A DNA stretch of 33,621 nt from a virus: IMG/VR virus record IMGVR_UViG_2799112904_000001, positions 1 through 33,621 of that record; one strand, given 5' to 3'. A model generated the notes under the pieces. The model was given only the letters and a program-made list of their open reading frames with translations. It searched no databases and was not told the origin of the DNA. The translations under genes and the position numbers were made by a program. Of this stretch, positions 3,064 to 12,151 are shown one piece after another (positions within the stretch are counted from its first letter, which is position 1; every line of letters starts with the position of its first letter).

Positions 3064-3891
3064 TTATTCTCCTTTTAATAGATTTTCTGCATCTTCATAA
3101 GTTAAATCACTTAATTTACTTTTATTTAATTTTATTAATATGTTTTTTATCTCATCTGCACTATATTTATCTTTTATTCTTTGCTTTTGTGTTTCTATAA
3201 TAGGCATTGCATTTATTTCTTTTTTTGTTTCTTCTGGTGTCATTTCAACTAATCCCGTTAATATGCTTACTGCCTTTTTTATATTTTCATCTTTCCCTTT
3301 ATCAAATAACCATTCAAGATATTTTACATCTCCTGATTCATATATCTCACCAATTGTTTTTCCGTTGTACTTTCCAAAATTAATTACTAATCCTTTAGCA
3401 TCTTCTTTTGTTTCTATTTTTTTATTTGTATTATATTTGCTATCTCCCCAGTAAACATTAGCTCCCATTCCTAACATTTTACATGCTACTGATAAAGCAT
3501 CTGTATAAGCCATTTTAAAGCATTCATCACTTGTATATAATCCGTTTTTTTCTTTTGCTATAAATGAACTTCCACCTGTTCCTATAATTGGTTCACTCCA
3601 TAAATTATCTTCTAGATTATATGGCACTTTATAATTTACAAATAAATTAATATCTACAATTGCAATTTTTTCTCCATTTGCTCCATCTATTATTTCTCTT
3701 TTTGTTATTGGTGCATGCCAACCTAAACCAACAGGTCCAAATATTTCGGTTAATTTTTCAATTCTCCACATTGGTTTTATATCAGTCATTCCTGACAATC
3801 TTCCACCTGTAATTGGTTTCTGTGCTTCTTTTGGCACTTCTTTTATCTTATTATATATTCCTAATGTTTCATAATTCTCTAAATTTTCCAT
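3064..3891 (-). CDS. Sak/Rad52-family single-strand annealing protein with C-terminal FGKY (ExoX-like) domain
   Basis: TDIKPMWRIEKLTEIFGPVGLGW; AYTDALSVACKMLGMGA.VY; INFGKYNGKTI.EI.......YLEWL. Confidence 0.8.
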   Translation of the reverse strand: MENLENYETLGIYNKIKEVPKEAQKPITGGRLSGMTDIKPMWRIEKLTEIFGPVGLGWHAPITKREIIDGANGEKIAIVDINLFVNYKVPYNLEDNLWSEPIIGTGGSSFIAKEKNGLYTSDECFKMAYTDALSVACKMLGMGANVYWGDSKYNTNKKIETKEDAKGLVINFGKYNGKTIGEIYESGDVKYLEWLFDKGKDENIKKAVSILTGLVEMTPEETKKEINAMPIIETQKQRIKDKYSADEIKNILIKLNKSKLSDLTYEDAENLLKGE

Positions 3892-3892
3892 A

Positions 3893-4108
3893 TCATTTAC
3901 CTTCCTTTATAAAATAATTTTTATATTTAATTTTTTCTCCAAATCTGTTTGTACCTTCCATCCATTCGTCTTGTATATTATATTCTAATCTTAATTGTCT
4001 AATATACTCTGATAATCTTGTACATCCCAAATCCATAAATGCTTGAAATGTATTTATACTTCCAAATCTTTGAATGTATTCTAGAACTCTATTTTTCACA
4101 CTTACCAT
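3893..4108 (-). CDS. Winged HTH protein (HTH_39-like)
   Basis: RVLEY....GSI.T.QA..DLG.TRLS..I..LR. Confidence 0.75.
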   Translation of the reverse strand: MVSVKNRVLEYIQRFGSINTFQAFMDLGCTRLSEYIRQLRLEYNIQDEWMEGTNRFGEKIKYKNYFIKEGK

Positions 4109-4341
4109 CCCATTTCTTCATAACTTAAAGGTCTATAATTGTCGTCTCTTTCTTGTATTATTTCTTCTTTTTCTTCTTCTAACCTATCAATTTCATTTAA
4201 TAAATCTTCTACTATATACATAATATGTTCTACATTTATAAAATCATTTTGTATATCATATTCTGTAATAGTTCTTTGTTGAACTTTCTTAATGATTTCC
4301 TTTTCATCATCACTCAATTTGTAATACATTTTATCTTTCAT
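4102..4341 (-). CDS. Hypothetical acidic coiled-coil protein, first gene after the early promoter
   Basis: ATG at 4341 lies 8 nt after the AGAAAGGTG SD. Confidence 0.75.
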   Translation of the reverse strand: MKDKMYYKLSDDEKEIIKKVQQRTITEYDIQNDFINVEHIMYIVEDLLNEIDRLEEEKEEIIQERDDNYRPLSYEEMGW

Positions 4342-4370
4342 ACCTCTCACACCTTTCTAGTAATTTTAAT

Positions 4371-4417
4371 TACATTATAATTATAACACATATATGTTAG
4401 TTTGTCAACACTTTTTT
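4371..4417 (-). promoter_or_regulatory. Consensus sigmaA early promoter, twin copy A
   Basis: TTGACA(4403-4408)-17-TATAAT(4380-4385), TG extension, upstream A-tract; 45/47 identical to 12105-12151. Confidence 0.9.
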
Positions 4418-5729: not shown

Positions 5730-5846
5730 TTATTTCTTCCTTTCTATTAATAACATTCTAATATAAGCATTTAAACTTAATTGCAATTTTTTTGCTTCTT
5801 CAACTAATTCAGCTTTTAATTCATCTGATATTGTTATATGCATCAT
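5730..5846 (-). CDS. Ribbon-helix-helix (Arc/CopG-like) microprotein, 38 aa, not in the ORF track
   Basis: MMHITISDELKAELVEEAKKLQLSLNAYIRMLLIERKK; GGGAGG SD; own promoter. Confidence 0.8.
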   Translation of the reverse strand: MMHITISDELKAELVEEAKKLQLSLNAYIRMLLIERKK

Positions 5847-5912: not shown

Positions 5913-5940
5913 AAAAAAAACAATTTATTTAAAATTGTCT
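5913..5940 (-). terminator. Intrinsic terminator after HNH gene 5940-6254
   Basis: AGACAATT/AATTGTTT hairpin followed by a U-run. Confidence 0.6.
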
Positions 5941-6254
5941 TAATTAAAATACTTCTTATATACCAGATTTTCACGTTTTAAACCCTCATATTTTGATAAA
6001 AGATACTTCCAAGTATAATTTATCATTGGACGTGGATTTCTTCCAAAATCGTACTTATAATGGCATTCATGGCAGGCAGTAACAACATTCTGCTCTATAC
6101 CTAGTCCTAATTGACTTCTTTTTATAAAATGTGAGTTAGCACATTCTACAGGTACATAAGAACCACAATAGATACATTTATGCTTATCTCTTTCCCATAC
6201 TATTTGCCTTACTTCTTTACTTATAGCTGTTGCTTTTGCTAATTTACTTTTCAT
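5940..6254 (-). CDS. Small HNH / NinG-like nuclease
   Basis: VWERD...CIYCG......SHFI.RS.LG.G...N.VTAC..CH..YD. Confidence 0.8.
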   Translation of the reverse strand: MKSKLAKATAISKEVRQIVWERDKHKCIYCGSYVPVECANSHFIKRSQLGLGIEQNVVTACHECHYKYDFGRNPRPMINYTWKYLLSKYEGLKRENLVYKKYFN

Positions 6255-6474
6255 TTTTTCTCTCCATAATATCTTTCAGATTTATTGCAAATTCTATTTT
6301 TTTATTTATCTCTTTTATTCTTGTATTTATATCTCTTATTCTCCAAAAATATTTATGTTTTCTAATAAAATAGTCTTTTTTTCCTAATGATCTTTCTATT
6401 ATAAAATTAATATTATCACGTTTTTTTTGTAAATCCTTTTTTTCCCCAATTAATCTTTTTAAATATTCGTGCAT
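6244..6474 (-). CDS. Hypothetical basic coiled-coil protein
   Basis: ORF with GGAGAGG SD and an upstream promoter. Confidence 0.7.
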   Translation of the reverse strand: MHEYLKRLIGEKKDLQKKRDNINFIIERSLGKKDYFIRKHKYFWRIRDINTRIKEINKKIEFAINLKDIMERKNEK

Positions 6475-6497
6475 ATTACCTCTCCATTATTAATTAA

Positions 6498-6526
6498 ATA
6501 ATATACCTTAAATAATAAAAAGTCAA
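6498..6526 (-). promoter_or_regulatory. sigmaA-type promoter
   Basis: TTGACT-17-TATTAT. Confidence 0.7.
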
Positions 6527-6527
6527 T

Positions 6528-6653
6528 AAAAAACTTACCCATTAAAATGAATAAGTTCTTATACATCTTTATTTGTAGATGCACAACACATTTAGTAATT
6601 TATATTTTAAAATTACTAGAAAGGTATTTGAGTGATGCGATGTTTTCATCACA
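6528..6653 (-). ncRNA. Putative trans-acting small RNA (about 125 nt, four hairpins, intrinsic terminator)
   Basis: Hairpins at 6636-6653, 6593-6618, 6562-6583 and a terminator at 6532-6557 with U-run; no credible ORF; 19-nt perfect antisense (6607-6625) to the mRNA leader at 4351-4369. Confidence 0.65.
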
Positions 6654-6658
6654 AATTA

Positions 6659-6687
6659 ATATTATCACAAATAAAAGAAAATGTCAA
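6659..6687 (-). promoter_or_regulatory. sigmaA-type promoter for the putative sRNA
   Basis: TTGACA-17-TAATAT with TGn extension. Confidence 0.7.
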
Positions 6688-6698
6688 ATTTACATTTT

Positions 6699-7580
6699 CT
6701 ATACTTTATATAAATATGATCCAACTACCCAGAACTTGTATTTATCGCCAATTCCTGCATCTAATTGATAATACTTAATACCACCATCAGTAGCAGTTTT
6801 TGATATTCTAAATGCTCTATTGAATACAAACTTATATCCCTTTTTCATATGGATTAAATCACTATTCCATGTCTTCTTACCATTTGAATTAACTATATCA
6901 ACAAACTTTTCTGGAATACCATTGTCTTTCCAACTAAAACGATTTTCACCACCAGCATTTAAATCTTCTCTTACTTGATACATTCCATATATTTTTTGAA
7001 CATCATCAGCAATATAATAATTGTAATGGTCTGCAGTTCTTATTTTTACATAATCTCCTACTTTAAATGTTGATGATGGTTGTGGTGTAGGCTCACCACC
7101 ATTCATAGCAATTCTTACTCTGTCTTTAAAACTTTCCCATCTGTTCTCTGCTAATATACGGTGTGGGCAATACTTACCACTCCAGTCTTGATGTTTCTTT
7201 ACTCTATCTACACCAAGTCCATATTTTTTAAGTAAATAAGCAACTAATTGTACACAGTTCTCTTCTGCTTGTACATATCTAGCACCACCACTTTTTGAAT
7301 AGCATATCTCAATAGCGATAGACTTTCTGTTCCCTGTACCATTAGCACCATCTCCACAAGAAAAGTTATTCCTATCAAGTGGAAGTCCTTGTCTTGCTTC
7401 TACATCGTCAACTGCAAAATGATATGAATTATATGAGTTTCTTTTCATATAAGCAATTTCATTTAAAGCACTAGCATCATTTGCTGTATTATGAATTGTT
7501 ATATACTCAGGTGTCATGTGATATGGACATTGAGTATTATATTTTGACTCACTTACTAAATCTTGAACTATATTAACCAT
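6699..7580 (-). CDS. Endolysin, N-acetylmuramoyl-L-alanine amidase (Amidase_2, CwlA/XlyA-like) with C-terminal putative cell-wall-binding region
   Basis: ITIHNTAN.ASA.NE; YHFAVDD; GNRKSIAIEICYS; KKHQDWSGKYCPHR; Pro-rich linker. Confidence 0.93.
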   Translation of the reverse strand: MVNIVQDLVSESKYNTQCPYHMTPEYITIHNTANDASALNEIAYMKRNSYNSYHFAVDDVEARQGLPLDRNNFSCGDGANGTGNRKSIAIEICYSKSGGARYVQAEENCVQLVAYLLKKYGLGVDRVKKHQDWSGKYCPHRILAENRWESFKDRVRIAMNGGEPTPQPSSTFKVGDYVKIRTADHYNYYIADDVQKIYGMYQVREDLNAGGENRFSWKDNGIPEKFVDIVNSNGKKTWNSDLIHMKKGYKFVFNRAFRISKTATDGGIKYYQLDAGIGDKYKFWVVGSYLYKV

Positions 7581-8085
7581 TTATTTCATCTCCTTTTTTA
7601 TATTTCCAAAAAAACCCACCAGCAGTTTTTCTTTCTCCACGACATACATCTGTTATGTGTGTTGTGTGTGGATTTTCTTTTCTTGCTATTTTTATACTTG
7701 GATATTCTTTAATAAAATTTCCTTGTAAATCAAATTGACATACTGGACTTATTCTTGTAGGTAATAATAATTTTAATTTATATGCATGCTTTGTGTTATC
7801 ACTTGGTGTCACCCATTCTAAATTATTAACATTGTTATTGAGTTTATTACCGTCTTTATGATTAATTTGTAACAATTTTTTTGGATTAGGTATAAATGCT
7901 TCTGCTACTAATCTATGAATGTTAAAATATTTTTTCTTATTGTTTTTGCTAAGTTTAACTCCATAATAAGTCCTTAAACTTTTGTACAAGTTTTTGTTTT
8001 TCCCAATTCTTTTTACTTCTCCTTTATTGCTTACTTGATATAAGCCTTCATATCCTTTTATATCTTTCCATATTTCCTTATCCAT
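7573..8085 (-). CDS. NUMOD4 + HNH + NUMOD1/IENR1 homing endonuclease between holin and endolysin
   Basis: EIWKDIKGYEGLYQVSN; IHRLVAEAFIPNP...INHKDGNK.NN.V.NLEW; V.QFDL.G.FIKEY.SI..A...CRG.RKTAGGF.WKY. Confidence 0.92.
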   Translation of the reverse strand: MDKEIWKDIKGYEGLYQVSNKGEVKRIGKNKNLYKSLRTYYGVKLSKNNKKKYFNIHRLVAEAFIPNPKKLLQINHKDGNKLNNNVNNLEWVTPSDNTKHAYKLKLLLPTRISPVCQFDLQGNFIKEYPSIKIARKENPHTTHITDVCRGERKTAGGFFWKYKKGDEING

Positions 8086-12085: not shown

Positions 12086-12104
12086 TTTTTCTCCTACCTT
12101 TCTG

Positions 12105-12151
12105 TACATTATAATTATAACACATATTTGTTAGTTTGTAAACACTTTTTT
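12105..12151 (-). promoter_or_regulatory. sigmaA early promoter, twin copy B
   Basis: TTTACA(12137-12142)-17-TATAAT(12114-12119); 45/47 identical to 4371-4417. Confidence 0.88.

Follow-up and report, generated by a model that had tools for sequence, protein, structure and literature searches.

A predicted small-RNA gene with a conserved antisense match to the leader of an early recombination operon in an uncultured gut/rumen phage

The stretch of DNA analysed here (the window, 33,621 nucleotides; IMG/VR record IMGVR_UViG_2799112904_000001) is a phage genome, complete at 33.5 kb; it carries a terminal repeat of 98 nt, has a GC content of 27%, and encodes every gene on the minus strand. At the lysis end, genes for a tail fibre (921 aa), a holin-like protein (79 aa), a NUMOD4-HNH protein, and an amidase endolysin follow one another in the order of transcription. 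On the other side of a 224-nt intergenic region lie genes for a 76-aa basic protein, an HNH protein (104 aa), a 38-aa ribbon-helix-helix (RHH) protein, a DnaD-like replication organiser, and a 182-aa loader-like protein. A further operon encodes, in this order, a 79-aa protein, a winged helix-turn-helix protein (wHTH, HTH_39), a 275-aa exonuclease/annealing-type protein, another HNH protein, SSB, a LexA_DNA_bind-like 70-aa protein, and RusA. Three HNH-type endonuclease genes (7573–8085, 5940–6254, and 1810–2331, all minus strand; two NUMOD4-HNH and one small HNH) differ in their presence among related phages, at module borders, which is consistent with homing-driven mosaicism around the two loci described below. 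The conserved 38-aa ORF between the HNH and replication genes (5730–5846, minus strand) gave HicB/RHH_1/FitA-like matches, making its product a candidate early transcriptional regulator.

Neither an integrase nor a CI-type repressor was found among the non-structural ORFs scanned. The preliminary description of this DNA had stated that both were absent, which held for these ORFs; the early region nevertheless encodes the 38-aa RHH protein, the wHTH (HTH_39) protein, and the LexA_DNA_bind-like protein. With no lysogeny genes among the ORFs scanned, the phage looks non-temperate. From the binning of related contigs into metagenomically assembled genomes (MAGs) alone, we would guess that its host is a member of the Firmicutes/Clostridia.

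The intergenic region downstream of the endolysin gene houses a compact transcription unit, the features of which are as follows (all on the minus strand, hairpins according to the predicted fold).

6699–7580, minus strand: amidase endolysin gene
6475–6698: 224-nt intergenic region between the endolysin and 76-aa genes, housing the small RNA (sRNA) gene
6659–6687, minus strand: promoter P1 of the sRNA (-35 TTGACA at 6687–6682, 17-nt spacer, TG-extended -10 TAATAT at 6664–6659)
6652–6528, minus strand: predicted non-coding sRNA of ~125 nt, delimited by promoter, fold, and terminator
6632–6652, minus strand: hairpin 1 (GUGAUG / CAUCAC)
6625–6607, minus strand: antisense core ACCUUUCUAGUAAUUUUAA, the exact complement of 4369–4351
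6593–6618, minus strand: hairpin 2 (UAGUAAUUU / AAAUUACUA)
6561–6584, minus strand: hairpin 3
6528–6555, minus strand: intrinsic terminator (CUUAUUCAUU / AAUGGGUAAG followed by U6; stem 6555–6534, U6 6533–6528)
6498–6526, minus strand: promoter P2 (TTGACT-17-TATTAT) of the 76-aa/HNH/RHH/replication genes, directly 3' of the sRNA terminator
6244–6474, minus strand: gene for the 76-aa basic protein, always adjoining the sRNA

All elements of the self-contained unit proposed earlier (a TTGACA-17-TAATAT promoter, three hairpins, a terminator, and ~125 nt devoid of ORFs) are indeed present. The predicted RNA has a minimum free energy of -34.8 kcal/mol (z = -5.98), and none of 200 shuffled sequences folded as well. 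By sequence alone, the locus thus combines the promoter, stable structure, Rho-independent terminator, and lack of an ORF expected of an independent sRNA gene. The sRNA terminator is also the sole terminator 3' of the endolysin gene. In the predicted fold, the anti-Shine–Dalgarno (anti-SD) 5' part of the antisense stretch (~6631–6619) is single-stranded between hairpins 1 and 2, while the 3' part of the antisense core forms the 5' arm of hairpin 2. The 3' arm of this hairpin, AAAUUACUA, repeats the sequence of the target itself, so that half of the antisense stretch would be held by an internal decoy. The toehold-type layout suggested by the preliminary description, with an unpaired seed and the remaining antisense stretch sequestered in hairpin 2, is therefore borne out by the prediction, the internal target copy being what holds the sequestered part.

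Comparison of indels among relatives revealed no conserved ORF in the sRNA locus on either strand. A plus-strand frame opening at ATG 6635, with an SD-like copy of the leader in front of it, was discarded as a candidate, as it is reduced to six codons in L007-type relatives by a 6-nt deletion and is absent from the divergent lineages L020 and L021. A search of the whole window against 4,227 Rfam families (cmscan, E ≤ 1) gave no family match for the sRNA, with only two chance miRNA matches elsewhere, and relatives likewise had no match in Rfam. Taken together with the conservation described below, we consider the predicted small-RNA gene at 6652–6528 (minus strand) to be real and conserved.

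The complement of the antisense core lies at the start of the operon headed by the 79-aa gene.

4380–4408, minus strand: consensus promoter of the target operon (TTGACA-17-TATAAT, TG-extended, 12 of 12 hexamer positions)
4339–4373, minus strand: type A leader of the 79-aa gene (5' hairpin GUAAUU..AAUUAC, SD AGAAAGGUG, ATG 4341–4339)
4102–4341, minus strand: 79-aa protein gene, first of the target operon (ATG 4341–4339)
3893–4108, minus strand: wHTH (HTH_39) gene
3064–3891, minus strand: gene for the 275-aa exonuclease/annealing-type protein

Positions 4369–4351 correspond to approximately +4 to +22 of an mRNA started from the promoter at 4408–4380 and span the SD region of the 79-aa gene. The 19-nt exact antisense match between 6625–6607 and 4369–4351, originally reported to cover the SD of the first gene, is there as described, and the inverted similarity between leader and sRNA continues imperfectly to 31 nt, reaching the ATG of the 79-aa gene. 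Segments of the sRNA predicted to be exposed are thus complementary to the ribosome-binding site (RBS) region of an mRNA encoded elsewhere on the same strand. The target promoter belongs to a twin block (4371–4417 and 12105–12151, minus strand; 86% identity over 65 nt), which is kept well past the hexamers in all relatives and partly even in the distant phage L006 (7347–7387). Divergence between them sets in precisely at the transcription start, and they hence appear to be one promoter module with different leaders attached.

An exact inverted repeat of at least 19 nt was the longest in 14 of 100 dinucleotide shuffles of the genome, meaning that the raw length of the match is not significant in itself; its significance comes from position, energy rank, and conservation. 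This particular 19-mer would be expected 0.1 times in the search with three mismatches allowed. When the antisense part was scanned for duplex formation against the whole sense strand (3,359 windows; mean -7.6 kcal/mol, SD 3.0), the leader was the single best site at -34.0 kcal/mol, followed by an internal coding position at -22.7 kcal/mol. The genome-wide interaction check put forward in the preliminary description, as applied to the phage sense strand, accordingly ranked the leader first. The anti-SD part resembles the complement of any extended Firmicute SD, making the pairing in part generic. The 9-nt match to the leader of the twin promoter (12096–12104), which had also been noted, does exist, but at -15.8 kcal/mol (net -11.7 kcal/mol) it falls within the background tail, like other SD-like sites, and we rejected it as non-specific.

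The predicted duplex with the cognate leader comprises 21 contiguous pairs, including G·U, and two short extensions (CUC:GAG and CAU:AUG) that carry it to the start codon. With intramolecular structure taken into account, the net gain was -21.5 kcal/mol for the cognate leader, compared with -7.9 and -5.4 kcal/mol for the leader alleles of relatives that lack the sRNA. The geometry of this duplex also bears on the sign of any regulation. Pairing at the 5' end of a message can be protective in Gram-positive bacteria, with FasX–ska and VR-RNA–colA as precedents for positive action. An RNA of this kind could shield the operon mRNA from 5'-exonucleolytic decay or trigger a stabilising cleavage, and it would fit such a role that pairing begins at about +4 and that the leader's own 5' hairpin would be replaced by a longer duplex with the sRNA. 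While the RNA is bound, however, ribosomes would be unable to load, as the duplex would occupy the SD and its extensions would reach over the start codon, and for this reason we regard a positive role as highly improbable.

Relatives were collected mainly via homologues of the 76-aa and 79-aa proteins, which are common in gut and rumen metagenome assemblies from ENA, Logan, and NCBI (roughly 270 for the 79-aa protein) and gave access to ~45 syntenic loci. Near and distant DNA searches of a cultured-phage collection yielded no relative, the only match being one of 74% to a Staphylococcus jumbo phage that we attribute to chance; pattern and protein scans of IMG/VR returned chance matches, the distant phage L006, the partial relative L107, and nothing more. 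L006 has a short unrelated leader without an antisense partner. A metagenome scan added one close relative, and of 59 matches in a genome scan with the 17-nt core, four were at loci of relatives, a rumen Clostridia MAG and a cattle-cecum Clostridium MAG contributing two contigs apiece. In the L020 lineage, the target leader is outside the comparison, since all three of its contigs break before it. These three independent assemblies (3' ends of L020, L100, L101, and L102) break at one point, inside the gene following the Phage_rep_org_N gene, and this points to a repeat, or to heterogeneity among strains, shortly upstream of the expected target leader.

In close relatives, the intergenic region is 89–96% identical and hence carries little information; the divergent lineages L020 and L021 are the informative ones. 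The -35 hexamer of P1 is invariant, and the position of the -10 box and its TG extension are kept in all relatives, including L020 and L021 (TACAAT and TAAAAT). P2 retains its hexamers and 17-nt spacing with a variable spacer sequence, and the consensus promoter at 4380–4408 is conserved in all relatives, with or without the sRNA. Predicted sRNAs of relatives fold with z-scores from -3.4 to -7.1 and an unchanged order of elements. An 18-nt block, TACCTTTCTAGTAATTTT, is invariant in all nine sequence variants, and the 3' arm of hairpin 2 is also kept. The remaining hairpins are built from other sequences: in L020, hairpin 1 is GCAUU/AAUGC, unrelated in sequence, and hairpin 3 and the terminator are fused (GACACG/CGUGUC followed by a U-run); in L021, a different stem of 10 + 3 bp, with G·U pairs, makes up hairpin 1, and hairpin 3 shows a compensatory change from CAUCU/AGAUG to CACCU/AGGUG. 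Hairpin 2 of L021 has 11 bp with one U·G pair, which fits an RNA helix and not a DNA palindrome. Fold prediction left the seed unpaired in both L007 and L021. With hairpin sequences replaced while architecture and antisense core are kept, this comparison indicates that selection acts at the RNA level.

Several changes preserve the pairing between the two sites. An A-to-G substitution in the target (AGGAAGG) of L013, L021, and L117 yields a G·U pair with the unchanged sRNA, and in L021 the U-run of the sRNA and the A-run of the target have both grown from 4 to 5, keeping the register (duplex -29.9 kcal/mol) and lengthening the pairing in the direction of the mRNA 5' end. These changes are suggestive and supportive yet thin, because the antisense core never varies. 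Of the compensatory covariation proposed in the preliminary description as a check, relatives thus provide one peripheral case (L021) and the G·U-compatible substitutions, but almost no two-sided covariation. A covariance-model alignment drew weak false matches and was left out of the pair statistics.

The distribution of the two sites among relatives serves as a natural knock-out experiment. Across 27 related contigs, the sRNA was accompanied by a type A leader in all 19 sRNA-bearing contigs that show the downstream site, and a different leader was present in all 8 contigs without the sRNA (L089/L109, L097, L098, L108, L110, L112, L113, and L116), with no discordant case. The proposal had been that the match would have to be co-conserved in relatives, and it is. 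Leaders of the sRNA-minus contigs are of type B (...GTAATAGAAAAGGTGGTGATTAAAATG) or type C, and a four-way DNA alignment confined the class difference to a leader cassette of ~35 nt, the sequences being nearly identical as far as the -10 box and from the ATG onward. Across the sRNA classes, identity is 90–100% for the upstream 182-aa gene, the promoter to its -10, and the 79/80-aa ORF; the 79/80-aa proteins are at least 87% identical between classes, and the 182-aa proteins of the sRNA-plus L019 and the sRNA-minus L112 are 97% identical. Identical copies of the 38-aa RHH protein occur in sRNA-plus and sRNA-minus phages, and the HTH_39 gene is absent from the sRNA-plus L019 and present in the sRNA-minus L108. 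At least two types of replication module lie between both sites in both classes, namely DnaB_2 (~253 aa) with the 182-aa gene, and MTES_1575 with DUF6291. Given flanks, proteins, and replication modules shared across classes, the association of sRNA and leader is not one of simple linkage.

Cognate sRNA/leader duplexes ranged from -30 to -36 kcal/mol, and the intergenic regions of sRNA-less relatives paired with their leaders at -11 to -17.5 kcal/mol. No antisense partner of B or C leaders rose above background within 8–10 kb in these relatives, and no second matched pair of sRNA and leader specificities was found, the coupling observed being one of presence and absence. In some sRNA-minus relatives, the spacer between the endolysin and the next gene is a 75-nt stretch with a plain terminator and promoter, while others carry a different insert.

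The latter, a different structured element of ~190–245 nt (L089:3176–3421, which is on the same contig as L109:3126–3371), occupies the place of the sRNA and has its own TATAAT-like box and terminator (AGCACU..AGUGCU followed by a U-run), without a match in Rfam; part of it is common to L020:6741–6810. One stretch of this insert, CAAGGUGUUCCAGAAU, is the antisense of codons at ~3510–3525 in the 72-aa gene downstream; its score of -28.5 kcal/mol lies ~6 SD under the average of the scan across the locus. Separately, some relatives of both classes carry an extra element directly 3' of the endolysin stop codon, consisting of ATTTATGTTATAATTAA and then a hairpin GGTGTTTT..AAAACACC, at the following positions.

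L095:162–228: extra post-endolysin element
L117:3095–3160: extra post-endolysin element
L108:2335–2400: extra post-endolysin element

The structured RNA and its terminator could be real even if the complementarity were an evolutionary remnant, left behind by an inverted duplication or at a joint made by recombination, without regulatory use, the RNA then working in cis as the 3' end or stabiliser of the lysis transcript, or acting on a host target. An inverted copy of the leader would account for the imperfect similarity extending to 31 nt with its ATG-like end; chance 19-mers are not rare at this composition, and the element does act as the sole terminator following the endolysin gene. A relic would, however, be expected to decay, yet the 18-nt core is the most conserved intergenic block while its flanks have been replaced, and a perfect association with a 35-nt leader allele 2.2–3.2 kb away, across shuffled replication modules, would be unexpected. 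We therefore hold this explanation to be quite improbable. On the evidence of energy rank, conservation, and co-occurrence, the predicted complementarity to the early-operon leader is specific and selectively maintained.

The 76-aa protein, whose gene starts just downstream of P2, is the sole protein whose allele tracks the sRNA: sRNA-plus phages encode a 76/85-aa form and sRNA-less phages a 72/74-aa form, 39–43% identical to it. Its predicted structure is a plain antiparallel two-helix hairpin (pLDDT 93), in which we found no HTH/RHH or other DNA-binding fold, no significant structural match, and no family assignment. The top structural neighbours, which are non-significant, include the tRNA-binding coiled-coil arm of seryl-tRNA synthetase, and an RNA-binding role for the 76-aa protein is conceivable from the model.

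It follows from this allele distribution that a site-tracking protein partner exists, and the two copies of the core might be sites that a single phage protein recognises, as operators in DNA or else in RNA, with the 76-aa protein as the best candidate and the antisense relation incidental. The preliminary description had itself pointed to GTAATT/AATTAC half-sites in both copies. The target copy at +4 to +22 is in a classic position for a repressor, the core is invariant at both sites as it would be for operators, and the 76/85-aa allele always occurs together with the sRNA and leader A, the diverged 72/74-aa forms being those of sRNA-less phages. Against this, the copy in the sRNA locus occupies +27 to +45 relative to P1 and is separated by ~95 nt from P2 further downstream, overlapping no promoter that it could control, and the modelled helical hairpin of the 76-aa protein is without an HTH or RHH fold. 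The canonical DNA binders of the phage (RHH, HTH_39) do not track the site, the hairpins next to the core co-vary as RNA, and the hairpin-2 U·G pair of L021 and the A-to-G substitutions in the target are neutral for RNA pairing while making the two 'operators' unequal. The shared DNA operator is weakened by these observations, and binding of one protein to both copies seems to us unlikely.

On comparative support that is unusually clean, we favour, with some confidence, a trans-acting antisense sRNA that blocks the RBS of the 79-aa/wHTH/annealing-exonuclease/SSB/RusA operon, the sRNA and leader A most likely forming an RNA-based translational off-switch. The sRNA would be transcribed from its own sigma-A-type promoter P1, and its single-stranded anti-SD seed, AAAUACCUUUC, would nucleate on the leader of the mRNA started at the promoter 4408–4380. 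Strand displacement would then spread the pairing into hairpin 2, with an outcome of ~21 contiguous base pairs and the two short extensions to the AUG. With the SD and AUG of the 79-aa gene covered in this way, initiation of translation would be blocked and the leader probably exposed to double-strand-specific cleavage, so that expression of the early recombination/replication operon may be damped or turned off as the sRNA accumulates. In this scheme, transcription, the direction of repression, its timing and strength, and the involvement of an RNase are what we infer.

Because the endolysin gene is without a terminator of its own, the sRNA is probably also the 3' end of the late lysis transcript. 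A bolder extension, which we consider possible though doubtful, is that late transcription delivers the antisense RNA and irreversibly silences the early operon. This would amount to an RNA-only timer by which late expression shuts off early expression in a virulent Firmicute phage, made up of an optional two-part cassette (the sRNA and the 35-nt leader allele) that is gained and lost jointly, and with it a resident phage could also silence co-infecting relatives with the same leader. Since P1 and the target promoter both resemble host sigma-A promoters, a simple early-to-late switch is not self-evident. The idea of an RNA-based immunity system, also raised at the outset, finds no support here, with no lysogeny genes among the ORFs scanned and nothing pointing to a carrier state.

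These findings suggest that regulatory RNA cassettes of this small, two-part kind are in circulation among mosaic phages. The relatives without the sRNA are in effect natural 'knock-outs' already present in databases, as the RNA and the 35-nt leader allele are gained or lost together while their surroundings are shared. The candidate described here comes from an abundant group of uncultured gut/rumen phages that show no lysogeny genes, whereas the few phage RNAs known to act in trans on messages of their own phage, such as P1/P7 c4, come essentially all from temperate Gram-negative phages (PMC12197685). In P1/P7, it is the RBS region of the ant message that the c4 RNA (immI; Rfam C4) blocks, and heteroimmunity rests on this RNA (PMC12197685). 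Like c4, the predicted sRNA is a structured phage RNA encoded on the same strand as its target and apart from it, with exposed segments that would pair with an RBS region, as those of c4 do in blocking translation (PMC12197685). Alleles of c4 and its target mark specificity classes among related phages (PMC12197685), to which the coupled presence or absence of the sRNA and leader A may correspond.

In other respects the two differ. The sRNA has no sequence or covariance-model similarity to c4 (no Rfam match at E ≤ 1) and possesses its own promoter and terminator. In contrast, c4 is processed from a transcript that also bears its target. Two short loop–target pairs in c4 correspond to one long contiguous duplex here, and the target is a recombination/replication operon instead of an antirepressor. 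Immunity of the c4 type operates in a lysogen, a setting that does not apply to a phage without an integrase or CI among the ORFs scanned. The earlier characterisation of the element as conceptually like P1 C4 without similarity to it was therefore apt: the logic is the same, while membership of the family fails on the lack of a model match, a different organisation and target, and a phage that appears not to be temperate.

Other phage antisense RNAs, namely P22 sar, lambda OOP and aQ, and BTP1 STnc6030, are cis-encoded (PMC12197685). They share with the predicted sRNA a small size and pairing at or near the translation start of a phage gene, which they repress. Being transcribed from the strand opposite their targets, they are complementary automatically, whereas the sRNA gene lies on the same strand as its target and 2.2 kb away, so that its complementarity must be kept by selection. 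VP882 VpdS, lambda PreS, and Phi24B 24B_1 are phage sRNAs that act in trans and whose targets belong to host and phage alike (PMC12197685). They resemble our candidate, as predicted from its sequence, in independent transcription and base pairing in trans, but are Hfq-dependent RNAs of Gram-negative temperate phages that use short seeds on mostly host targets; the sRNA described here has a 19–21-nt match to the leader of its own phage, in what we guess to be a Firmicute/Clostridia host.

Engineered toehold-type riboregulators place a single-stranded seed beside a hairpin and bind by strand displacement. The seed of the predicted sRNA similarly adjoins a hairpin that holds the remaining antisense sequence, but the element is a natural one, and its hairpin resides in the regulator and not in an mRNA switch. 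We place the predicted sRNA among the trans-acting phage antisense regulators, outside the c4 family.
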